64,000 bases of DNA from assembly GCA_965207225.1 (NCBI GenBank), contig CBDBLV010000004.1:64001-128000 (forward strand), given 5' to 3'. A program made the position numbers and the translations under genes. Position 1 is the stretch's first letter. Each line of letters begins with the position of its first letter. Of this stretch, positions 6,382 through 62,286 are shown piece after piece. Below the pieces are notes generated by a model. The model was not told the origin of the DNA and made no database searches. It was given only the letters and a program-made list of their open reading frames with translations. The DNA comes from Dehalococcoidia bacterium. GTDB lineage: Bacteria; Chloroflexota; Dehalococcoidia; Plut-88900.

Positions 6382-7521
6382 ATGAAAGATTACGTAGCCG
6401 TTGACGTGGACGGGCACATCATGGAGCCGCCCGACCTCTTCGAAAGGAATCTGGAGCCGAAATATCGTGACAGGGCATACAAGCTGGTGGTGGACGATGA
6501 GGGTATCGAGCATCCGGTGATGGACAACGTGTGGCTGGACGACACCCGGCCCCCGGGGACGGTTTCCGTGTACGGGGCAGTGGACAAGCCGATAGAAGAC
6601 TACCTGGGGGCGAAGGTGCACTACCGAGAGTCGATGGTGCCCGGGGCATGGGTGCCCGAAGCGCGGCTGAAAGTAATGGACGAGGAGGGCATAGACATAG
6701 CGCTTTTTTACCCTTCGCTGGGGCTGGACTGGGAGAGCTCTTGCGATGACGCCGACCTCGTTGCGGCACATTGCCGGGTGTACAACGACTGGCTAATCGA
6801 CTTTTGCAAGACTGACCCGAACAGGCTGGTGCCAATTGCCCACATTTCCTTCATGGACGTGGAGCAGGCGGTGGAGGAGACGCGTCGGGTGGCGGGGTTG
6901 GGGGCGAAGGGTCTGATGATGCTTGCGTTCCCGCCACGCAACGGGCAACCGTACGGTGAGCCGGTCTACGATCTGATCTGGGCGGAGGCGGAGAGCCTCG
7001 GGTTGCCAGTGGGGATTCACGTACACGGGGGCGGGACACGGTTCGGCGGGGACTACTTCTACCCGCACCCGTGGAAGGCATCCTGGTGGTGGTGGTTCGT
7101 GACCGCGGGAGAGTTCGTCATCGATTCGTTTACGTCGATGTTCCAGGGCGGGATGTTCGACAGGTTCCCGAACCTGCAGGTTATTGCGCTGGAGTCGGGG
7201 TGCGGGTGGCTGGCGTACTGGCTGGAGCGGATGGACGAATATTTCGAGAGGTACGGCTTCGAGACTCCGATGCAACTGGACAGGCCCAGCGAGTATTTCC
7301 ACCGGCAGTGCTGGATCTCCATGGAGCCGAGCGAGAAGATCGGGCTGACGATGATGCAGCTGCTGGGGGCGGACCGGTTTTTGTGGGCGTCGGATTATCC
7401 GCATTCGGATGCTGAGATGGGGACAGTGGCGCAGCTGAAGAGAAACCTGGCCGATCTGCCCGATTCGGAGTTCAGGAAGGTGCTGGGGGAGAATGCGGTG
7501 AGGTTGTATGGTCTTTCGTGA
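6382..7521 (+). CDS. Amidohydrolase family protein (amidohydro_2)
   Basis: DVDGHIMEP, MDEEGID, YNDWL, IHVH, LESGCGWL, WASDYPHSD. Confidence 0.92.
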   Translation: MKDYVAVDVDGHIMEPPDLFERNLEPKYRDRAYKLVVDDEGIEHPVMDNVWLDDTRPPGTVSVYGAVDKPIEDYLGAKVHYRESMVPGAWVPEARLKVMDEEGIDIALFYPSLGLDWESSCDDADLVAAHCRVYNDWLIDFCKTDPNRLVPIAHISFMDVEQAVEETRRVAGLGAKGLMMLAFPPRNGQPYGEPVYDLIWAEAESLGLPVGIHVHGGGTRFGGDYFYPHPWKASWWWWFVTAGEFVIDSFTSMFQGGMFDRFPNLQVIALESGCGWLAYWLERMDEYFERYGFETPMQLDRPSEYFHRQCWISMEPSEKIGLTMMQLLGADRFLWASDYPHSDAEMGTVAQLKRNLADLPDSEFRKVLGENAVRLYGLS

Positions 7522-7609
7522 GGCGACATAACGGATGGAAGACTGGGGGGTCAGTGAGAGTGTGCGGTGTTGAGACTGCACATAACGCATACGCTATGCA
7601 AAACAGATA

Positions 7610-7692
7610 ATCACTCTCACCCCAGCCCTCTTTCTTGACGGGATAGGGGACCGGACCCCGCCCCAGATTCCTCGCGGGGCATCGGAATGACA
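7610..7692 (+). repeat. Tandem REP-like family A (degenerate) plus family B
   Basis: TCACTCTCACCCCAGCCCTC..GGGATAGGGGA followed by AGATTCCTCGCGGGGCATCGGAATGACA (7665-7692). Confidence 0.8.
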
Positions 7693-7740
7693 GTTGGGCG
7701 AATGCGCTGTCGAAATTCGAAGATTTAAATTGGAGGAGTT

Positions 7741-8646
7741 ATGCCGAAGATAGGGCTGGTGGGGCTGGGGGTTATCGGGCAGATCTATGCCGTCAACTTG
7801 ATAAAAGCCTTTGGCCCCATAAATGTCTACGACGTGGACCGGCCTCACATGGCGGTGGCCAGAAGCCTAGGAGGGATAGTGTGTGAGAGTGGGGAGGAAC
7901 TGGCAGCAGCGTCGGAGGTCGTTGTCCTGGCACTGCCCAACCCCGAGGCAGTACGAGCCGCAATGGGTAAACAGAACGGCCTGCTGGAGGGTGCAGTACC
8001 CGGAACCGTCATAGTGGACCTGAGCACAATTGACCCTATGACGGCATTGGAAATGTTTCAGGTTGCCAAAGAGCAGGGTGTGGACTACCTGGACTCGCCG
8101 ATAAGCGGGGGTCAGCCAGGCGGGGCGGGAACGGACGGGGCAAGGGCGGCGAACGTGACGTTCATGGTAAGCGGGGACAAGGCAGCGTTTGAAAGGGCGA
8201 GACCGGTGATGGAGGCCTTGGGCGAGAAATTCTTCTTCCTCGGCAAGGCCGGAACGGGGACTAGAGTGAAGCTGTTGAGCAATTTCGTGAGCGGGATGGT
8301 GAACCTGATTTCGGCGGAGGCTTTTGCTCTCGGGGCGGCGGCGGGTATCGACGCCAAGACGTTGATGGATGTGTTCGACGAGACGGATGCGGACTGCTAT
8401 TTCATGCAGAACTACGTGCGGCCCCGGATTGAACGGGGTGACTTCGAGCCGGGTTTTTCCATTGACTTGCAATACAAAGACCTGCGGCTGATGAGTGAGT
8501 GGGCACGGGAGGAGGGAATCCCCGTGCCTATCAATGACCTAGGCGTGCAGCTGTACCAGATGGCTCGGGCAGCGGGGCTTGGAGGGAAGGACCTGGTGGA
8601 GTCGGTGAATTATTGGGCACGGGTGTCGGGGATTGAGACTCCCTAA
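7741..8646 (+). CDS. NAD(P)-dependent beta-hydroxyacid dehydrogenase (3-hydroxyisobutyrate dehydrogenase family)
   Basis: IGLVGLGVIG Rossmann motif, VDLSTIDP, LDSPISGG, G-x-G-xx-VKL-x-N, PGFS..LQYKDL. GGAGGAG SD. Confidence 0.9.
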   Translation: MPKIGLVGLGVIGQIYAVNLIKAFGPINVYDVDRPHMAVARSLGGIVCESGEELAAASEVVVLALPNPEAVRAAMGKQNGLLEGAVPGTVIVDLSTIDPMTALEMFQVAKEQGVDYLDSPISGGQPGGAGTDGARAANVTFMVSGDKAAFERARPVMEALGEKFFFLGKAGTGTRVKLLSNFVSGMVNLISAEAFALGAAAGIDAKTLMDVFDETDADCYFMQNYVRPRIERGDFEPGFSIDLQYKDLRLMSEWAREEGIPVPINDLGVQLYQMARAAGLGGKDLVESVNYWARVSGIETP

Positions 8647-8669: not shown

Positions 8670-9812
8670 CTATAGGCCGTAGAGACGGGCGCAGTTGTCC
8701 CAGAGGATCTTACGGAGGCTTTCGCGTGGGAAGTCGAGGGTGAGGAGCATATCGACGGACTTGGGGTAGCGGCTGTCGGGGTGGGGATAGTCGGTGGAGA
8801 AGACGATATTGTCGTCGCCGAGCCAGTCGATGGTGTATTTGCCGGGCTCTTCGTCGGCCTCCACGGAGGTGAAGCACTGGCGCTTGAAGTAGTCGGAGGG
8901 CATGTGGGGCATTTTGTCCTTCAGGGCTGACTCCCGGTGTTCGTAGTGCTCGTCCATGCGCCATATCCAGAAGGGCGCCCAGCTACAGTTGCCCTCCAGG
9001 AAGGCGAACCGGACGCCCGGGAATCGCTCCGTGACGCCGCCCATGATGATGGCGAGGCAGGCATACATCTGCTCGATGGGGTGGGCAGCAAGGTGCTCGG
9101 TGGTCCAGAGGTTTTCGTGGTGGCCATCGAAGCGTTCACCCATGGCTACGGGGAGCTCACAGGGGGTGCCTTCGTGGAAGCCGACGGCCAGATCGTGAGT
9201 CTGACACTCGGCCCATAGGCGGTCATAGTAGGGGTGGTTCCAGTTACGGCCCTGGACTGGATTAGGTCGGAGGAAGATGCTCCTGAAAGCGTAGTCATTG
9301 GCGACGCGTCGGGTCTCGGTGACGGCGGCGTCGATGTTCTGGGCGGGGACCATGCCGGAGCCAAACATCCTGGTGGGGCTGCCCTGGCAGAACTCAGCGA
9401 GCCAGTCGTTGTAAGCGCGAGAGATAGCCGCAGCAAGATCATCGTCGTCGTAGACCTTGGCGTGGGCGAAGAGGCCCATGGAAGGGAAGAGAAGGGCGAG
9501 GTCAAGACCCTCGGCGTCCATGGCCTCAACCTGGGTGTCGGGGCCCCAGCCCCGGTCCTGGAAGGAGAGAAACTCGTCGAGGCGGCCGTAGCGCCTGGCA
9601 AGGTCGACGTACATGTCGCCTTCGTCGGCGAAGTTGTCCTGATCCCGGGCGATGACGCGGCCATCGTGCTTGAGGCGTAGATCCATGAAGTACTCTTCGG
9701 CACCGACGGGGGCATGGTCCCGGAAGTCGGGGGGCATGTAGGTCTGCCAGAGGTCGGCGGGTTCCATGACGTGCATGTCACTGTCGATGACTTTGAAGCC
9801 GTCTTTTGCCAT
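8670..9812 (-). CDS. Amidohydrolase family protein (amidohydro_2)
   Basis: DSDMHVMEP, AYNDWL, FHEG, LEGNCSW, FSTDYPHPD, DNCARLY. Confidence 0.92.
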   Translation of the reverse strand: MAKDGFKVIDSDMHVMEPADLWQTYMPPDFRDHAPVGAEEYFMDLRLKHDGRVIARDQDNFADEGDMYVDLARRYGRLDEFLSFQDRGWGPDTQVEAMDAEGLDLALLFPSMGLFAHAKVYDDDDLAAAISRAYNDWLAEFCQGSPTRMFGSGMVPAQNIDAAVTETRRVANDYAFRSIFLRPNPVQGRNWNHPYYDRLWAECQTHDLAVGFHEGTPCELPVAMGERFDGHHENLWTTEHLAAHPIEQMYACLAIIMGGVTERFPGVRFAFLEGNCSWAPFWIWRMDEHYEHRESALKDKMPHMPSDYFKRQCFTSVEADEEPGKYTIDWLGDDNIVFSTDYPHPDSRYPKSVDMLLTLDFPRESLRKILWDNCARLYGL

Positions 9813-9855
9813 TGTAGTGCCCCCTCCCTCAGGGCATTTTCCACCCTCAGGATGG

Positions 9856-10464
9856 TTACTGCAATGGGGTGATGCGCATGGCGAGGCGGGGGAGCCAGTT
9901 GCGGGGACGGGTGACTATTGGGCCTCGGACGACCTTAAAGCCGGCGCGTTGGAAGATGGGTTCGGCACCGAAGAAGATGTTGTCATCTCCCGTGCGCTCG
10001 TTTCCAGCCCTGGGGTAGGCCTCGACGGCAGGGGCGCCGTTGTCGAAGGCGTACTGGGCGGCGGCGCGAACGAGGGCCACGGCGATGCCCTGGCCCCGGG
10101 CGGCGGTGCGGACGGTGACACAGGGGATAACCCAGACGTTTTCATCGTCGACGCGGGGCGTGGCGCGTGACTTTGCGACGCGGGTGAGTTCGTCCCTGGG
10201 GGCGACGGCGGCCCAGCCGACGGGTTCTTGGCCCCGGTAGGCGAGGATGCCAGGGGCGATAGGGCGTCGGGCCAGGTCTTCCATGGCGATGCGGCGTCGG
10301 TTAGCCCCGGAGCCTTCACCGGGAAGCTTGTTCCACTGGGGTCCAGAGACCCGGGGGAACATGCACCAGCAACTACTACCCCAGCTTCCGCGGAGGACGA
10401 CTTTGAGGTCATCCATCAAGTCGGGGGTGAGGGGCTTGAAGGTGAGGGAGGTTATATTGGTCAT
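9856..10464 (-). CDS. GNAT family N-acetyltransferase
   Basis: CWCM motif, VGWAAVAPR, acetyl-CoA motif ARGQGIA, AVEAYP, FQRAGF. Start placed at ATG 10464. Confidence 0.85.
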   Translation of the reverse strand: MTNITSLTFKPLTPDLMDDLKVVLRGSWGSSCWCMFPRVSGPQWNKLPGEGSGANRRRIAMEDLARRPIAPGILAYRGQEPVGWAAVAPRDELTRVAKSRATPRVDDENVWVIPCVTVRTAARGQGIAVALVRAAAQYAFDNGAPAVEAYPRAGNERTGDDNIFFGAEPIFQRAGFKVVRGPIVTRPRNWLPRLAMRITPLQ

Positions 10465-54819: not shown

Positions 54820-55452
54820 TTGGCAAGACGCAGAGGGCCCGTGGGCCCGCCTTCCGGCAAGTCCTTCTGGCAGAAATACCAGTGGTTTATCATCGCTGGC
54901 GTGGCGCTGTTCTTCGTGATCACGGTGATTGCGCCCGCATTGACCAACACCCCCGAAGAGGAAATGACGACGGACGAAACACCTGTTGATCCGGGCGCCG
55001 TTACCTCCGTTCCCGGGGAGTTCTATTTCAGGGCCACCAGCGCTGAGCATATAGAGTGGGGTGCGCGGGGTTCCGGGTACGCGTCGGACCCGCCGACGTC
55101 GGGGCAGCACTACTCGGTGCCCGGGCAGGCGCCGACGAACTGGGGGGCCTACTCCAGCCCGGTACAGGATGAAATACTGATTCACAACATGGAGCATGGC
55201 GGGATAATCGCCTACTACCTGCCGTCGGCGCCGCCGGCGGACGTGGAACAGCTGCGGCAGTTCATCACGAACCAGCCGGGATATCCGCGAGGGTTTGTAA
55301 TGGCGCCCCGCTCCCGACTTCCCGCCAACATTACCCTGGCCGCGTGGGAGTATTACCTGCCGGTTTTCCAGTACAACGAGGCCACCATGCAGGCGTTCAT
55401 CGACGCGCACTACGACCGGGGCCCGGAAACCCTGGACGGGACCTTGAGATAG
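54820..55452 (+). CDS. DUF3105 domain-containing membrane-anchored protein
   Basis: N-terminal TM helix; Y.SDPPTSG.H, WG.Y, IHNMEHG, LAAW, GPE. Confidence 0.85.
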   Translation: MARRRGPVGPPSGKSFWQKYQWFIIAGVALFFVITVIAPALTNTPEEEMTTDETPVDPGAVTSVPGEFYFRATSAEHIEWGARGSGYASDPPTSGQHYSVPGQAPTNWGAYSSPVQDEILIHNMEHGGIIAYYLPSAPPADVEQLRQFITNQPGYPRGFVMAPRSRLPANITLAAWEYYLPVFQYNEATMQAFIDAHYDRGPETLDGTLR

Positions 55453-55470
55453 GGTCCCGAACGCGCCCGG

Positions 55471-55719
55471 ATGTACCTTGCAAAGGTCCGCGTAACTCTT
55501 AAGCCGACCGTGAACGACCCCCAGGGCCTTACGATCCTGGGGGCTCTTCATTCCCTGGGATTTTCATCGGCGCGTGAAGTCAGGGCGGGGAAGTATTTGG
55601 AGGTGCGGGTGGATGAGGGGAGTCGGTGGGAAGCCGAAGCGAAGGTGGAGCAGATGTGTGAGAAGCTGCTGGCGAACCCCGTGATTGAGAGCTATTCGTT
55701 CGAGGTGGAGGAAGGGTAG
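55471..55719 (+). CDS. purS: FGAM synthase subunit PurS
   Basis: V.LKP.VNDPQG, VRAGK, MCEKLLANPVIE. Confidence 0.96.
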   Translation: MYLAKVRVTLKPTVNDPQGLTILGALHSLGFSSAREVRAGKYLEVRVDEGSRWEAEAKVEQMCEKLLANPVIESYSFEVEEG

Positions 55720-55787
55720 GGAGCGGCTCCGGGCGATCTTGGTCGCCTGAGGCTTAGGGGACGTTTGGCGGTTGTGGGCCACCCCCA

Positions 55788-56015
55788 CGCTCACACTTCG
55801 AGTGCCTCAGCATGTGCGGCCCCACCCAGGGGATGGGGCAGGAGACACGTTGACGGGCATGAATATGTTGACCGAGGGAGTGATGCTTGAGATCCCTCGC
55901 GGGGCCTCGGGATGACAGGGCAATAGGTGGGTGGTGGGAGGTAGAACGCGTCGGGTTGTTTGTACCTGGGCCACTCCCCTCCGCTCGACCCTTCGACCCT
56001 GCTCAGGGTGAGCGG
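55788..56015 (+). repeat. Cluster of REP-like C-B-C units between the convergent pur and his operons
   Basis: C at 55788-55819, B at 55890-55917, C at 55981-56015. Confidence 0.8.
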
Positions 56016-56067
56016 CCCCACACCGGGGAGGGAGGTTTGCAGATTCTGCCCCAAGAAGAACTGGGAC

Positions 56068-56667
56068 CTAGGTCTCGATGACGCCCTTGGTGCTGGGGAC
56101 CTGGGAGGCGGTGCGGGTGTCGATGCGGGAGGCGGCATCCATCGATTTGGCGAGGGCCTTGAATAACGACTCTATTTTGTGGTGGTCGTTGAGTCCGGCG
56201 ATGAACTTGGCGTGGATATTGAACCGTCCCTCGATGGCGAAGGTCTCGAGGAAGTGCCGGGCCATGTCTGCGGTGAGGCCACCCACGACGGGCTGGGTGA
56301 AGGAAACGTCGACCTCCGCGTAGCCCCGACCCCCGAGATCCAAAGCGACCAGGGACAGGGCCTCGTCCAATGGGACGAGGGCGTGGGACATCCTGACTAT
56401 GCCCTTGCGGTCGCCGAGGGCCTGACCGAAGGCCTGCCCCAGGAGGATGGCTACGTCCTCCACGACGTGGTGGCCGTCGGGGTCCGAGGTGCTTTTGGCA
56501 CGGACGTTGAGGTCGAAGGCGCCGTGTCGGGCGAGCTGGGAAAGCATGTGGTCGAGCATCGGGACACCAGTCTCAACACTGTACTGGCCGGTGCCGTCTA
56601 TCTTCACCTCGATGGAGATGTCGGTCTCTCCGGTCTTGCGTTCGAGGAGGGCGTGCCTGTCAGCCAT
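56068..56667 (-). CDS. hisB: Imidazoleglycerol-phosphate dehydratase (monofunctional)
   Basis: RKTGETDI, DHML, HHVVED, PLDEAL, NDHHKIE, PSTKG; no phosphatase domain. Confidence 0.97.
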   Translation of the reverse strand: MADRHALLERKTGETDISIEVKIDGTGQYSVETGVPMLDHMLSQLARHGAFDLNVRAKSTSDPDGHHVVEDVAILLGQAFGQALGDRKGIVRMSHALVPLDEALSLVALDLGGRGYAEVDVSFTQPVVGGLTADMARHFLETFAIEGRFNIHAKFIAGLNDHHKIESLFKALAKSMDAASRIDTRTASQVPSTKGVIET

Positions 56668-57784
56668 TGATCTCCGGGCCTATCTCCGTGAGGGCATCGG
56701 CGAGGCGGTCGGTCTCTTCCGGCCTCCCGACGCTGATGCGGAAGCAGTTCTTCAGGTTTGGCCTATCATAATACCGGACGAAGATCTTGCGCTGCTTTAG
56801 GAGCCGGTAAATCTGCTCTCCGTCTCCACGGGTCACGTTGCAGAGGATGTAGTTGCCCTCCGAGGAGACGGGTGAGAGGTAGTCCAGGTCCTGCAGGATG
56901 TCAAAGAGTCGGGCTCTTTCGCTCACCAGGGCCCTTACGTTGTCCATAAGGTAGTCCAGGTCTCCCAGGGACTCCAGAGCGGCGATTTGGGCGAAAACGC
57001 TGACGTTGTAGGGCTGCTTGATCTGGTTGAGGTAGGCGTAGACCTCGGGGGAGACGATGGCGTAGCCGATGCGGACTCCGGCGAGGCCCGCCCACTTGCT
57101 AAATGTGCGCACGACCATGAGAGTTTCGTAGTCGTTGACGAGGTCGGCGACAGTGTGGCCCGCGAACTCGTAATAAGCCTCGTCGATTACGACATAGAGG
57201 CCCATCTCCAGCAGCTCGACGACCTGCTCCCGGGGGATGCTGTTGCCGGTAGGGTTGTTGGGGGAGGCCAGAAAGATGAGCTTGGTGCGCTCGTCAACGG
57301 CGGCACGGATGGCATTGAGGTCTATGGCGTAGTCAGGGGTGCGATCAAGCTCGACCAACTGTCCACCAGCGACATCGGTGAGGAACTTGTACATGCCGAA
57401 AGTGGGTACGCAGCTCAAGACCTTGTCGCCGGGTTCCAGAAGGAGGCGGACGATCATGTCGAGGACTTCGTCGGAGCCGTTGCCAACGATAATGTTCTCG
57501 GGGGCGAGGCCCGCGTACTCGGCGAGGGCGGAGCGGAGGGTGCGCTGCTCAGCGTCGGGGTAGGCGTGGAGAGCCTCACTTTCGGCGATGGCCTTGAGGA
57601 CTCGGGGGGAGGGGCCGTAGGGGTTTTCGTTGGCGTCGAGCTTGACCGGCGGCAACTGCTGCGACGACTCCTCGGGCTCGGCGACGAGGCGTTCTACGGG
57701 GACGACAGGGGTGTAACCCGTAAGGTGCCGGAGGTCGGGGCGCATGAGGTCTCGGATTGACGGTCGAGATTTTTCGCTGGTCAT
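56660..57784 (-). CDS. hisC: Histidinol-phosphate aminotransferase
   Basis: KLDANENPYGP, GNGSDE, SPNNPTG, DEAY, RTFSKWAGLAGVRIGY. Confidence 0.96.
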   Translation of the reverse strand: MTSEKSRPSIRDLMRPDLRHLTGYTPVVPVERLVAEPEESSQQLPPVKLDANENPYGPSPRVLKAIAESEALHAYPDAEQRTLRSALAEYAGLAPENIIVGNGSDEVLDMIVRLLLEPGDKVLSCVPTFGMYKFLTDVAGGQLVELDRTPDYAIDLNAIRAAVDERTKLIFLASPNNPTGNSIPREQVVELLEMGLYVVIDEAYYEFAGHTVADLVNDYETLMVVRTFSKWAGLAGVRIGYAIVSPEVYAYLNQIKQPYNVSVFAQIAALESLGDLDYLMDNVRALVSERARLFDILQDLDYLSPVSSEGNYILCNVTRGDGEQIYRLLKQRKIFVRYYDRPNLKNCFRISVGRPEETDRLADALTEIGPEING

Positions 57785-57786
57785 CT

Positions 57787-59133
57787 TCAGTCCCTGGTGT
57801 TGCTGAGGGAAGGCTGGGGTGTACGGACCTCCAGGGAGCGGGCGTGGGAGTCGAAGCCCTCCTGCCTTGCGATCCGGATTCCATGGGGCAAGAGGGGGGT
57901 CGATTCCTCCTCCGAGAGGGAGATGATGGAGGTCGATTTGAGGAAATCGTTGACGCCGAGCGCGGAGCTAAAGCGGGCTGCGCCGGCGGTGGGGAGGGCG
58001 TGGCTCGGGCCTGCGACGTAATCCCCGAGGACGTGGGGAGAGTGGTCTCCCAGGAAAAGGGCCCCGGAGTTCCTCACCAGATCCACGTAGCTTTCGGAAT
58101 CTTGAACCATGAGGCAGAGGTGCTCCGGGGCATATAGGTTGGACAGTTCAATGGCCTGCTCTATGGAGTCGGTCACGATGATTGCGCCGTTGGCGTCCAT
58201 GGACCTGGTGAGGATATCAAGTCGCTCGGAGCGGCTTCGGAGGTCGGAGAGTTCGGATTCTACGCTTTGGGCTAGAGATGGAGAGTTGGTGATGAGGATG
58301 GAGACGGAGTCGGGGTCGTGTTCGGCCTGCGCGAGGATGTCGGCGGCGCACCAGGCCGGTGAAACGTGTTCGTCGGCGATGGTGACGGCCTCAGTCGGGC
58401 CCTGGATGGTGTCGATGCCGACCGTTCCAAAGACCATGCGCTTGGCGGTCTGCACGAAAACGTTGCCGGGGCCGAATATCTTGTCGACGGCGGGGACGGA
58501 TTCGGTGCCGTAGGCGAGGGCGGCGATTGCCTGTGCTCCCCCGACGGCAAACACCCTATCCACACGAGCGATAGCGGCAGCAGCGAGGACTACGGGAGCG
58601 ATTGAGCCGTCCGGGCGGGGGGGTGTGACCAGGATCACTTCCCGGACGCCGGCAACTCGGGCGGGGATGGCTGTCATGAGGACGGTGGATGGGTAGACAG
58701 CGGTGCCGCCGGGAACGTAGAGGCCAGCCCTCTCGATGGACGTGACCCGCTGCCCAAGTCCCTTGCTCCTGAAATCACGGATGGCGTGGCGTGCTAGCTC
58801 GGTCTGGTAGGCCTCAATGCGTTGGGCGGCGAACCTGAGGGAATCGGCGACGTGGACCGGGATTTCATCCAGGGCTTCGTTCAACTGGGACTGGGGAACT
58901 TCAAAGCGGTCGGGGGAGAGATCGTGGATACGGAAAACATAGTCAAACAGGGCAGAGTCGCCCTTGGTGCGGACGTCGTCGAGGATGCGAGATACGGCGT
59001 CGGACAGGGAGAGAGGCTCGCCGAATACGCGCTCAATGCCGGCGGCGACCCCGGGGTTAATGGAGTCGTCGGGGGCGGCGTGAAGGCGGTGGAGGAAAGC
59101 GCGGGCCTCGTTGAGGTCGGTAATAACCCTCAC
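57787..59133 (-). CDS. hisD: Histidinol dehydrogenase
   Basis: YVPGG.AVYPST, GGAQAIAALAYG, GPGN, QAEHD, APEHL, GDYVAGPSHALPT. Confidence 0.97.
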   Translation of the reverse strand: MRVITDLNEARAFLHRLHAAPDDSINPGVAAGIERVFGEPLSLSDAVSRILDDVRTKGDSALFDYVFRIHDLSPDRFEVPQSQLNEALDEIPVHVADSLRFAAQRIEAYQTELARHAIRDFRSKGLGQRVTSIERAGLYVPGGTAVYPSTVLMTAIPARVAGVREVILVTPPRPDGSIAPVVLAAAAIARVDRVFAVGGAQAIAALAYGTESVPAVDKIFGPGNVFVQTAKRMVFGTVGIDTIQGPTEAVTIADEHVSPAWCAADILAQAEHDPDSVSILITNSPSLAQSVESELSDLRSRSERLDILTRSMDANGAIIVTDSIEQAIELSNLYAPEHLCLMVQDSESYVDLVRNSGALFLGDHSPHVLGDYVAGPSHALPTAGAARFSSALGVNDFLKSTSIISLSEEESTPLLPHGIRIARQEGFDSHARSLEVRTPQPSLSNTRD

Positions 59134-59876
59134 GATAGATACTCCCCGGCAATGACGACGAACTGGTCGATAGCCTTGGCCCGATAGGCGGCAATGACAT
59201 GGTCGGGGGCCTGAGCCCTGGCTTTCTCGAGGAGGTCGGGGCCCCGGGCGATGACGGAATTCATGGTGTTTTCGTCGTCTTTAAGGTGTTGGGGGAGGGC
59301 CTTCCTGACGAATCGCCTGAGGTGGTCCCAGCCGAGGTCCATGGAGGTGCGCTCGGTCATGACCTCCTTCCAGCGGCCCAAGAGTTCGGGGTCTATGAAG
59401 GATACGTTGACACCGACATCGGAGCTTTTGAGGGCATCGAGAACGGCGTCCAAGTCCCGGATGCCGTTGCGTTCCCGCTTGTCCATGTCGAACTGGAGGA
59501 CACGGTCGAGGACGTTGGTTATGGGGTCGGAGGGGGCCTTTTTGCCGAAGCAGGGGCGATAGACCTGGGCTATCCAGTATTCGTCGGTGACGAGGTGGCA
59601 CATATAGCCGAGGACGAAGGCGCGGGTCTCGTGGCCGAGGCCTGCGGCGTCGGCTAGCTCGGGGTAGGTCTCGAAGAGGCCCTGGATGCCCCTGCCAGGC
59701 TCGTCCTTTGCGAGGTCAAAGAAGTGGGTGCTGTAGCGGTCCCACCCGGCGAGGTTCCGGACGTCGGGGGCGGTGGAGCCGAGGAGGTAGCTGCCGGAGT
59801 AGTCGGACAGGAGGGGGTGGCCCAGGGCTCGGGCGGCGTCATCGGCAAAGGAGATGTGAAGCGAGGTGTTGGGCAT
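59130..59876 (-). CDS. Zinc-dependent phospholipase C family (PLC/P1 nuclease fold) protein
   Basis: MP....H, LGSTAPD, THF, GYMCHLVTD. Start ATG 59876 lies 7 bp after the hisG stop, and the stop overlaps the hisD GTG. Confidence 0.8.
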   Translation of the reverse strand: MPNTSLHISFADDAARALGHPLLSDYSGSYLLGSTAPDVRNLAGWDRYSTHFFDLAKDEPGRGIQGLFETYPELADAAGLGHETRAFVLGYMCHLVTDEYWIAQVYRPCFGKKAPSDPITNVLDRVLQFDMDKRERNGIRDLDAVLDALKSSDVGVNVSFIDPELLGRWKEVMTERTSMDLGWDHLRRFVRKALPQHLKDDENTMNSVIARGPDLLEKARAQAPDHVIAAYRAKAIDQFVVIAGEYLS

Positions 59877-59883
59877 CCGACCG

Positions 59884-60903
59884 CTATACGGAAGTCTCAA
59901 CGGAGGCCCGGCCGAGCTGTTCGAGCAGGTTGTCGTATGCCGAGCACTTTGCCTCGAATACGTAGGTGGTCGGGAACAGGATGATGCCGTTGCCGCCGAT
60001 TGCACGAAGGTGGTCAAGGGCGGTGATGACCTTATCCCGGCCAACCACCATGGTAACGGCGTACCAACCAGTCTGGCCCTCCTTGCTGAATACCTGGGAG
60101 ACGGTCGGGCCTTCGATGCCGGCGATCTCGGGGTGGTCCTGGATGTGGCCGGCGATCTGCTCGGGGGAGTCTCCACGGATGTTGGCGATAATGCTGTAGT
60201 ATTCGGAGGCCCGGAGATGTCCTTCAATAAGTTCCAGCATTATCCGGACGCCAGCGAGGGCTTCTTCATCATTGCTGAGAAGGTCTCGGTTGGCAAACAA
60301 GCAGGCCTGAGATTTTACGACCGTCCCGCCGGAGATGGTCTTGAGCTGGTTCTCCCGCAGGGTGTTGCCGCTGGACGTGATGTCTACGATGAAGTCGGCG
60401 TAACCCATGGCGGGAGCGGCTTCCAGGGTGCCGCCCGCTTCGATGATAGAGAACTTGGAGACACCCCGTTCTTGCAGGTATTTTCCGGTGAGTCGGGGGT
60501 ACTTAGTGGCGACACGGAGGGGTTTGCCCTGGGTGACGTACTTCCCCGAAAGGTCCACGAGGTCATCTGCATTGGAAATATCTTCCCAGGACTCGGGGAC
60601 GGCGATCACGAGATCGGCCCCGCGAAAGCCCAGGCTTTCAACGAGGAGCATGCCAGCGCCATCATCGGGGTGGGCTTCAAGGTACTGGTCCAGGCCTGCA
60701 ATGCCTATCTCGGCGGCGCCGGCTTCTACCTGGCGCGGGATATCGGCGGCGCGCTGGAAAAGGACTACGGCGTCCGGGACGGCGGGCATGCGGCCCGTGT
60801 AGCGTCGGGAGGTGACCCTCTGAACAGCGAGGCCACAGGAATCAAGGAAATCAAGGGTCGGGTCCTGCCAGTCGGCGTTGCTGGGGAGGGCTATGCGGAG
60901 CAT
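59884..60903 (-). CDS. hisG: ATP phosphoribosyltransferase (long form)
   Basis: LRIALP, RAADIP, RVATKYP, GTLEAAP, DITSSGNTLREN.L, plus a C-terminal regulatory domain (GPTVS). Confidence 0.95.
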   Translation of the reverse strand: MLRIALPSNADWQDPTLDFLDSCGLAVQRVTSRRYTGRMPAVPDAVVLFQRAADIPRQVEAGAAEIGIAGLDQYLEAHPDDGAGMLLVESLGFRGADLVIAVPESWEDISNADDLVDLSGKYVTQGKPLRVATKYPRLTGKYLQERGVSKFSIIEAGGTLEAAPAMGYADFIVDITSSGNTLRENQLKTISGGTVVKSQACLFANRDLLSNDEEALAGVRIMLELIEGHLRASEYYSIIANIRGDSPEQIAGHIQDHPEIAGIEGPTVSQVFSKEGQTGWYAVTMVVGRDKVITALDHLRAIGGNGIILFPTTYVFEAKCSAYDNLLEQLGRASVETSV

Positions 60904-60977
60904 GGTCTCTGGGGAGGGTTGTAGAGCGGTCTATTCATAAGTTCAAGCGGGTAAATTCTAACCTAGGTGGGAAGGGG

Positions 60978-61394
60978 TCAGCGGGCGCAGAGGAATTCGA
61001 ATTCCACGAAGAAGCCGGGTCGGGCGAGGGCGGCGATTCTTCTCAGCTGGCCTGCGGCAGGTTTAACTTCTACGTCCTTGAAGCAGTCAGCCCATATCTG
61101 GAAGATGGCGGGGTGATGCTCTGCCATGTCGACTTCCATGGTGTAGGTGGCTTCGACGCGGATTACGTCATCAAGGGACCAGCCTTCGTCGTTTAGCATG
61201 CCGACCAGTGAGTCGAAGACGGCCCGGGTCTGGGCTACGGGGTCGCCGGGGTGGCGGACGTTGCCTTCGGGGTCGGCGTCTATCTGGCCGGTAAGGAAAA
61301 GAAGCTCGCTAAAGTTGGAGACTTTAAGCCCCCAATTGAATACGTGGCTACGGTCGGGGGCGTTTGGCTGGAGCAGGGCTTTCTTGGTGGCCAT
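60978..61394 (-). CDS. RidA/YjgF family protein
   Basis: LFLTGQI, AQTRAVFDSL..ML, DVIRV, ALARPG..VE.E. Confidence 0.85.
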   Translation of the reverse strand: MATKKALLQPNAPDRSHVFNWGLKVSNFSELLFLTGQIDADPEGNVRHPGDPVAQTRAVFDSLVGMLNDEGWSLDDVIRVEATYTMEVDMAEHHPAIFQIWADCFKDVEVKPAAGQLRRIAALARPGFFVEFEFLCAR

Positions 61395-61448
61395 GGTTGT
61401 GGCTCCTTTGTTGGTTTGTTGTGCTTAGGGACTATGCGGGCGGAGAGT

Positions 61449-61474
61449 CGGGCGACCAGCCGGTCGCCTCTGCG
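61449..61474. repeat. Short intergenic palindrome (GGCGACC-N4-GGTCGCC), REP-like
   Basis: 7-bp perfect stem; single copy in the window. Confidence 0.35.
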
Positions 61475-61572
61475 GGGGAATAGAAGGGCAGTGGGACAAT
61501 TTGGAAGTTGCTGTAGTTAGTGGCGCATTGGAAGTCCTCGGGGCCTTGGAATGAGCATTGAAGGGCAGAGGT

Positions 61573-62286
61573 TTAAGTGCGGATCATGATGCCGCCGTCT
61601 ACGAAGAAGGGTTCGCCGGTAGTGAAGGAGCAGGAGTCGGAGGCGAGATAGACGAGGACGCCGGCAAGGTCCTCGGGCCTGCCCCAGCGCTGGGTCGGGA
61701 TGTAGCGCCGGACCTTGTCGGGGAGGGCGTCATCGGAGTCGACGATCCAGCCGCCGACGATGGCGTTGACGCGGATGTTGTCCCGGGCCCACTCGAGGCC
61801 CAGGGCCCGGGTGAGGTGAATGACCCCCGCCTGGGCGGCGGAGAAGGCGGCCTCGTTGACAACCACCCGGGCACCCAGGCCGGAGGCAATATTGACGATG
61901 TGGCCGCTCTGCTGGGCGAGCATGCGGCCGGAGGCAGCCTGACAGGAGACAAAGACAGAGTCTAGGTTATGGTCTATTGCCCTGCGCCATTCTTCGTAGG
62001 ACATTTCGGAGAGGGGCTTGGCGAAGTCTTCCGCAAGGTCATTGACCAGGATGTCAATGCCAGCCATTCCGGCCATGGCGCTGGCAACGGCGGGCTGGAG
62101 GCCGGATGCATCCCGGAACCAGGGGACTGCAGCGGAGGCGGGGGGAGGGGTGACTCCCTCCGGGTGGACGACGGTGAGGATTGCGCCGGCTTCGGTCAGG
62201 GCGTCAGCCAGGACGGAGGCGTTGATGCCGCAACGGGTGACCAGGACGGTCTTCTTGTCCTTAAGGTTGAAGGGAGCGGGGGACAT
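61573..62286 (-). CDS. SDR family protein (atypical N-terminus and catalytic motif)
   Basis: IDILVN, IVNIAS, FSAAQ in place of YxxxK, NIRVNAI, RWGRPED, VDGG. Confidence 0.85.
   Translation of the reverse strand: MSPAPFNLKDKKTVLVTRCGINASVLADALTEAGAILTVVHPEGVTPPPASAAVPWFRDASGLQPAVASAMAGMAGIDILVNDLAEDFAKPLSEMSYEEWRRAIDHNLDSVFVSCQAASGRMLAQQSGHIVNIASGLGARVVVNEAAFSAAQAGVIHLTRALGLEWARDNIRVNAIVGGWIVDSDDALPDKVRRYIPTQRWGRPEDLAGVLVYLASDSCSFTTGEPFFVDGGIMIRT

Follow-up and report, generated by a model that had tools for sequence, protein, structure and literature searches.

Histidinol-phosphate phosphatase (EC 3.1.3.15) catalyses step 8 of histidine biosynthesis, the step of amino-acid biosynthesis that is most often left unassigned; owing to gaps of this kind, uncultured bacteria are wrongly called auxotrophic. 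Three superfamilies of the enzyme are counted in reviews (PMC9798254), to which a proposed SerB-like HAD type can be added (PMC5764234), and hisN was missing in 42 of 208 prototrophs according to the figures given by GapMind 2026 (PMC13759103). We analysed 64,000 nucleotides from a Dehalococcoidia bacterium (GenBank assembly GCA_965207225.1, contig CBDBLV010000004.1, positions 64,001 to 128,000 of the forward strand; this whole stretch is called the window). Inside a histidine operon it holds an open reading frame at 59130-59876 on the minus strand, which encodes a PF00882-like protein of 248 amino acids, here termed PLCl (or X). PLCl is a fixed, co-inherited member of a hisG-PLCl-hisD-hisC-hisB block. 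The best single reading of its role is that of the phosphatase of step 8, an assignment that we make tentatively.

The enterobacterial hisG-D-C-B block encodes steps 1 and 6 to 10 of the pathway, with the phosphatase as the N-terminal HAD domain of HisB (TIGR01261). PLCl would complete the same set of steps, yet it is encoded by a separate gene, whereas the HAD domain is fused to hisB. HisJ and HisK of the PHP type (TIGR01856) would share the proposed reaction with PLCl, and their multinuclear His/Asp metal site is chemically analogous; they fold as a TIM-like barrel, however, while PLCl is predicted to be all-alpha and has no PHP match. With HisN of the IMPase type (TIGR02067; PMC5516325) PLCl would again have the reaction in common, both would be metal-dependent phosphomonoesterases, and both can stand in his clusters. 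Yet the two sequence families are unrelated, and HisN-type genes accompany PLCl in 20 of 81 carrier genomes instead of replacing it. PLCl lies outside the families with demonstrated activity (HAD HisB-N, PHP HisJ/K, IMPase HisN and SerB-like HAD), Pfam giving PF00882 only.

The PF00882 family covers the catalytic domain of zinc-dependent phospholipase C (PLC) and GPI-PLD. PLC and nuclease P1 bind three Zn ions through the N-terminal residue, His, Asp, His, His and Asp, followed by His, His and Glu or Asp, and the N-terminal metal ligand is Trp1 in both. Nuclease P1, a member of the same superfamily, hydrolyses phosphomonoesters too. PLCl passes the curated cut-off of PF00882, is predicted to be all-alpha like the catalytic domain and has a similar length of about 250 amino acids. 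It shows the ordered motif H...D...H...HxxxD and a conserved extreme N-terminus, which may be a ligand like Trp1. In contrast to PLC and P1 it matches only part of the profile and lacks the His/His/Glu ligands of the third site. Unlike characterised bacterial PLCs it is apparently cytoplasmic and belongs to a biosynthetic operon, not to the secreted toxins or lipases. A literature search, with most subscription journals outside its reach, returned no mention of PF00882 and no link of the PLCl family to histidine synthesis; within the same scope histidinol phosphatase was not relevantly linked with phospholipase C or with Dehalococcoidia.

Linkage of PLCl to hisG and hisD

When one genome per species was scanned, relatives of PLCl turned up in at least 480 species; linkage was counted in the best 80 loci, every one of which came from a metagenome-assembled genome (MAG) of Dehalococcoidia or Chloroflexota. 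Identity to the window protein ranged from 33 to 98% among these loci. A hisG gene, long or short, ended at most 400 nt upstream of PLCl in 77 of the 80. Two of the three others have no room for hisG, and one has only 748 nt of upstream sequence. Likewise 77 of the 80 loci had the start of hisD no more than 500 nt downstream; two exceptions are contig ends and the third (L026) reads hisZ-hisG-PLCl followed by a truncated hisD. PLCl is not tied to one type of HisG, since both long HisG and short HisG with HisZ were found beside it.

An even sample of 151 Dehalococcoidia genomes (the class sample) contained 81 carriers of PLCl from 56 of 110 genera; of the 108 high-quality genomes 60 were carriers, and hisD was present in 144 of the 151. 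According to coordinates read by eye PLCl adjoins hisD in 80 of the 81 carriers, the exception (G038) being split over two contig ends. None of the seven genomes without hisD has PLCl. Its presence is clade-wise with families nearly all-or-none, and the slot is kept over at least 29 family-level groups. Pairwise distances of PLCl and HisD in 31 loci were correlated with a Mantel r of 0.885, a value not reached in any of 999 permutations; PLCl diverges faster, with a mean p-distance of 0.605 versus 0.471 for HisD. The hisG-PLCl-hisD arrangement is far beyond chance. The conservation of synteny across Dehalococcoidia, which the first-pass annotation of the window had named as a check on its proposal of a phosphatase, is borne out by the counts for hisG, hisD and the carriers.

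In a phylum sample of 301 genomes, 17 genomes outside the class had weak relatives of PLCl, and in 15 of these the match was confined to between a third and a half of the profile at its N-terminal end. No his genes were found within about 6 kb of distant relatives from other classes in nine loci examined. Because these relatives have no his genes nearby, the his linkage is the property of one clade within one class, held over deep divergence. Among the distant relatives, those at L126-L134 (G381, G179 and family f83) keep the H/D/R/H/HxxxD core but have neither DRxxQ nor W169. Their neighbours encode a PRK-type kinase, an esterase, amidohydrolases, a PLP enzyme and glmS.

In the window the order is hisG, PLCl, hisD, hisC, hisB, head to tail and all on the minus strand. 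The hisG gene (59884-60903) encodes an ATP phosphoribosyltransferase of 339 amino acids of the long form with a C-terminal regulatory domain (PF01634, 138 bits; PF08029, 44 bits) and ends with a TAG stop at 59884-59886. A spacer of 7 bp, read from the sequence (59877-59883), separates it from the ATG of PLCl at 59876. The TGA stop of PLCl (59130-59132) overlaps the GTG start of hisD (59133-59131) in the tetranucleotide GTGA at 59130-59133. The N-terminus of HisD that follows from this start aligns with 30 orthologues. The overlap suggests translational coupling of the two genes. hisD (57787-59133) encodes histidinol dehydrogenase (PF00815, 492 bits), which uses the product of the missing phosphatase step, and hisC (56660-57784) the histidinol-phosphate aminotransferase (PF00155, 225 bits) that makes its substrate. 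HisB (56068-56667; 199 amino acids) is the imidazoleglycerol-phosphate dehydratase with PF00475 as its sole domain and without a HAD phosphatase domain. Gene order, 7-bp gap, GTGA overlap and dehydratase-only HisB all agree with what had been described at first pass. No Rfam family reached its gathering score anywhere in the window, and a promoter and terminator scan of 55400-61600 gave nothing that exceeded shuffled sequences.

Family membership and conserved residues

PLCl matched PF00882 (Zn_dep_PLPC) with 29.7 bits and an E-value of 7.2e-7 and thus passed the curated cut-off of 26.8 bits. The match is limited to residues 7-98, corresponding to profile positions 2-93 of 167, and the whole catalytic domain is not covered. 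Within the class sample the PLCl gene reached the cut-off in 49 of 151 genomes with a top score of 43.5 bits, and the longest PF00882 match in the class spanned profile positions 1-127. No NCBIfam model matched PLCl. A word-indexed search returned 100 related proteins of about 250 amino acids. The few with a source name were called either 'zinc dependent phospholipase C family protein' or 'hypothetical protein'; organism labels, where given, named Dehalococcoidia or Chloroflexi MAGs. A profile search of 1.84 billion representatives yielded 721 clusters at an E-value of at most 0.001, 426 at 1e-10 and 145 at 1e-30.

The residues H7, G33, P37, D38, R47, H51, F52, Y91, H94, D98, D124, R125, Q128 and W169 are invariant in 85 of 85 his-linked PLCl sequences. 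The His/Asp motifs that had been pointed out earlier as Zn ligands are therefore real features of the family. In its order and spacing the motif H...D...H...HxxxD agrees with the ligands of metal sites one and two in phospholipase C and nuclease P1. Following H94 there is no invariant His, and D124, R125 and Q128 occupy the region instead; hence the third Zn site of phospholipase C has no counterpart in PLCl and at most two sites are retained. Distant relatives of PLCl keep H7, D38, R47, H51, H94 and D98 but neither D124-R125-xx-Q128 nor W169. As these relatives share only the core residues, the N-terminal half of PLCl appears to be a common metal-binding core, while the C-terminal half defines the his-linked clade.

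The start codon is followed by Pro in 84 of 84 his-linked sequences. This invariant Met-Pro start would fit removal of Met, by which the new N-terminus could become a metal ligand. By inspection only, PLCl has no leader peptide, as it starts with Met-Pro and the invariant H7 comes five residues later; to that extent the lack of a signal peptide claimed at first pass agrees with our view. No fusion of PLCl with HisD was found among proteins of 435-2000 amino acids, which is weak evidence.

Step 8 in the window's genome and in the class

The genome to which the window belongs comprises 4.03 Mb in 5 contigs. It encodes hisH-hisA at C4:541986-543340 and hisF-hisIE at C3:336637-338198 in addition to the hisG, hisD, hisC and hisB of the window. 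Every his step but step 8 was assigned, and PLCl is the sole non-his gene inside a his cluster. The known types of phosphatase stayed below their curated cut-offs: the best HisJ-family match (TIGR01856) had 30 bits against a cut-off of 90, the best HisN matches (TIGR02067) 152 and 119 bits against 275, the HAD domain (TIGR01656) 29 bits against 84, and the HisB N-terminal model (TIGR01261, cut-off 140) had no match. A search for HisB-N, HisJ/K and HisN, likewise suggested by the first-pass annotation, thus left the gap in place with the other his steps all present. There was also no known-type phosphatase beside hisH-hisA or hisF-hisIE, where nine scanned neighbours had no phosphatase-family match. 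Replacement of HisE by PLCl was rejected, as the genome has a fused hisIE. In the class sample 10 of 151 genomes reached the curated cut-off for any known phosphatase type, as compared to 144 with hisD. Three points make step 8 the best single guess for PLCl: no other step is open, its chemistry suits such a protein, and there is the coupling of the PLCl gene to hisD.

The observations assembled in the following paragraphs weigh against this assignment. The quality of the window's genome (92% completeness, 8% contamination) is one of them, and the other candidate phosphatases that it encodes are a second. Two 225-amino-acid PHP + PHP_C proteins (L002 at C4:263524-264195 and L003 at C4:363376-364002) adjoin ogg/GHMP-kinase and holA genes, and their superfamily includes HisJ/K. 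Three matches to this small PHP family were counted in the genome, standing for at least two proteins and probably three. Members of the family, 1 to 7 per genome, are found in 108 of 151 class genomes, whether or not these carry PLCl. Furthermore, there are two IMPases which score equally or nearly so on inositol-monophosphatase models. They carry SuhB/ImpA-type features, either GSAAL or a Gly four residues past the Asp of motif 6, which are given as criteria excluding HisN by Kulis-Horn et al. 2017 (PMC5516325). These generic IMPases, like the small PHP proteins, of which there are at least two, are weaker candidates than PLCl for the phosphatase of this genome. A generic IMPase of 370 amino acids that is 39% identical to the second of the two (L005) lies divergently beside hisD in a non-carrier (G007, L100:4675-5784).

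Non-carriers are a third point, for 63 genomes of the class sample have hisD but no PLCl. We looked at 20 of their loci. All 18 that hold hisG keep (hisZ-)hisG-hisD, followed in most by hisC and hisB, and hisG mostly abuts hisD. No common replacement gene was found in the 20 loci, the insertions being heterogeneous and unrelated. Nor is a PLCl paralogue located elsewhere in non-carriers: 69 of 70 PF00882 matches in the class are PLCl itself and the remaining one is weak with 20.5 bits. About 43 of the 63 non-carriers have neither a HisN-model match of at least 225 bits nor a HisJ-family match nor a HAD domain, yet they keep a full his cluster. Because of these genomes an unrecognised enzyme for step 8 must exist in the class, and on grounds of parsimony it could serve the carriers too.

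If PLCl replaced the known phosphatases in the class, those types would be expected to be absent from carriers and present in non-carriers. This predicted complementarity failed, and the trend was the opposite. HisN exceeded its cut-off in 6 of 151 genomes, all of them PLCl carriers of one family (f22). At a threshold of 225 bits the HisN model matched in 20 of 81 carriers (families f16, f22 and f38, plus one genome each of f34 and f58) versus 6 of 63 hisD-bearing non-carriers. HisJ-family matches with an E-value of at most 1e-12 were seen in 10 of 151 genomes, all carriers, and four of them were above cut-off. The strong IMPases of the class show the HisN-type motif 5, an Asp with flanking aromatics, and a residue other than Gly in motif 6. 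In family f38 the cluster even reads hisZ-hisG-PLCl-hisD-hisC-hisB-DUF6941-IMPase with an IMPase of HisN type, for which the HisN model is the best NCBIfam match at 230 bits, while PLCl keeps every invariant residue. Since its five genomes are kin, f38 is one independent case. DUF6941 and the IMPase are located at L094:9168-10504 and L096:9100-10350 (the IMPase of L096 at 9526-10350) and also occur in L093, L095 and L097. No IMPase, HAD or PHP gene lay within about 6 kb of PLCl in the 80 loci, the scan giving such genes only in the f38 loci, which were taken in addition to the 80, and beside hisD in the non-carrier locus L100. HisN-type genes of f16, f22, f4 and f59 were near his genes in none of nine loci. 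Matches above cut-off to the HAD domain model came from 14 carriers and 18 non-carriers, 32 genomes in all. These matches are probably GmhB-like because the HisB-specific model TIGR01261 was above cut-off in none of the 151 genomes, with a best score of 98 bits versus 140.

The predicted structure is the last point. An AlphaFold2 model of PLCl calculated with 31 sequences was all-alpha with a predicted local distance difference test (pLDDT) score of 92.8 and a predicted template modelling (pTM) score of 0.91. Foldseek returned no match in the PDB at an E-value of at most 0.001, although the method can miss all-alpha relatives. The top match had an E-value of 0.26 and a template modelling (TM) score below 0.3; it was an unrelated helical protein, and neither PLC nor P1 was found. 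The family profile searched against PDB sequences gave a best E-value of 0.15, and two distant relatives of PLCl returned nothing relevant from the PDB. The PLC/P1 fold claimed at first pass thus has the half-length Pfam match and the motif in its favour, but the structure comparison did not confirm it.

The failure of complementarity is softened by the lack of another phosphatase and by a precedent for other roles of IMPases. Classical SerB (TIGR00338) was detected in none of the 151 class genomes at an E-value of at most 1e-15. Judged from their sequences, Dehalococcoidia seem to be without several textbook small-molecule phosphatases, SerB and HisB-N among them. In organisms with a second histidinol phosphatase, HisN-like IMPases have been shown to function as phosphoserine phosphatases (GapMind 2026, PMC13759103). 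Together with the absence of SerB this precedent implies that the HisN-type IMPases co-occurring with PLCl may serve another role. In addition, redundant histidinol phosphatases are described for C. glutamicum with HisN and Cg0911 (PMC5516325).

Proposed role of PLCl and alternatives

The context evidence for a role of PLCl in histidine synthesis is strong. The proposal that this role is the hydrolysis of histidinol phosphate, which the first-pass annotation had inferred, is partly supported: synteny and the gap in the window's own genome speak for it, whereas complementarity, the non-carriers, the fold and the other candidates of that genome speak against it. We consider it a possibility that falls somewhat short of an even chance. 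PLCl would then be a cytoplasmic metal-dependent phosphohydrolase dedicated to histidine biosynthesis. H7, D38, H51, H94 and D98, possibly with the N-terminal Pro after removal of Met, would hold two metal ions as in zinc-dependent PLC and nuclease P1, and R47 and R125 would bind phosphate. Recognition of the substrate's aminoimidazole moiety might fall to the subfamily-specific residues D124, Q128 and W169. The enzyme would release histidinol for HisD, whose gene appears to be translationally coupled to that of PLCl.

On this proposal the his-linked clade with its DRxxQ motif may form a further, non-homologous family of histidinol-phosphate phosphatases, built on a two-metal remnant of the PLC/P1 site with an N-terminal Pro ligand and present in about half of the class including SAR202-type members; we put this forward with the same reserve. 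If true, a textbook example of non-orthologous displacement would gain a new fold; reaction and evolutionary pattern are both familiar, and the scaffold would be new. PLCl would fill the commonest remaining gap of amino-acid biosynthesis for about half of the Dehalococcoidia. At least 480 species genomes would have the name 'phospholipase C family protein' corrected, and metabolic reconstruction would improve for a class that is abundant in marine, soil and subsurface habitats. The co-occurring HisN-type IMPases would have another role, with phosphoserine phosphatase as one option. If PLCl is not the phosphatase, it is still a conserved tenth gene inside one of the best-studied operons.

Such a gene could encode an accessory hydrolase of the pathway with another substrate. 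It might cleave a phosphodiester or pyrophosphate bond of an intermediate or side product, or remove pyrophosphate and thereby pull the HisG reaction, with a gain in efficiency for carriers, whereas lineages lacking PLCl would make histidine all the same. The position of PLCl directly after hisG is in line with this, as is its dispensability in the 63 hisD-bearing genomes without it. Carriers that combine PLCl with HisN-type IMPases (20 of 81) retain all its invariant residues, and characterised PF00882 enzymes cleave phosphodiesters. Yet no pathway step of this kind is known, the fused hisIE already covers the PR-ATP pyrophosphohydrolase, and nothing points to a particular substrate. Moreover, the start/stop overlap is with hisD, and adjacency to hisD is as conserved as that to hisG. 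We therefore regard an accessory hydrolase as possible, though on the whole unlikely.

The clade-wise presence of PLCl could also stem from a single capture between hisG and hisD of a passenger unrelated to histidine, such as a housekeeping phosphoesterase or a lipid-head-group hydrolase. Kin are not independent, so that the many loci may represent few events; the distant relatives in other classes are not his-linked, and SbcCD, MarR, GGDEF and HEPN passengers reside in other his operons of the class. In contrast to these scattered genes, PLCl occupies the same slot in its at least 29 family-level groups, at identities down to 33% and with tight or overlapping junctions. The his-linked clade also has invariant residues of its own (D124, R125, Q128 and W169), which suggests a specialised function. 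A passenger is thus distinctly unlikely.

A still less probable role is that of a non-catalytic or metal-handling partner, whose His/Asp site would do no more than bind metal; it could supply HisD with Zn, buffer Zn for it, or modulate HisD or HisG. As a Zn enzyme HisD would be a fitting partner, and PLCl overlaps the start of the hisD gene and abuts it in nearly all carriers (80 of 81). The occurrence of PLCl with both types of HisG shows that it is tied to neither, and this would suit a partner of HisD. On the other hand, the invariant R47 and R125, next to the ligands of the metal, suggest a catalytic site that binds phosphate rather than a carrier, known Zn chaperones come from other families and, as weak evidence, fusions of PLCl with HisD were absent. 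A true phospholipase C, as the automatic names and the passed PF00882 cut-off would have it, is hardly credible in view of the match to the N-terminal half of the profile only, the missing counterpart of the third Zn site, the lack of a signal peptide by inspection, the lack of a fold match to solved structures and the context of amino-acid biosynthesis.

Finally, several his operons of the class contain other inserted genes. Evident passengers are found at L104:1586-4851, L102:2543-5964 and L105:4996-5421; they comprise SbcC/SbcD-like genes between hisC and hisB, genes for a MarR regulator, an amidohydrolase and a 7TM-PAS-GGDEF protein between hisD and hisC, and a HEPN gene between hisG and hisD. 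In one non-carrier (G057; L114:5132-5785 and 7203-8066) a gene for a metallo-beta-lactamase-fold protein of 218 amino acids (Lactamase_B_3) is located directly upstream of hisD. It could be another lineage-specific hydrolase in the slot that PLCl occupies elsewhere. The same operon has a PSP1-domain gene after hisD, which is also present after hisD in a further genome (G081, L115:7170-7823).

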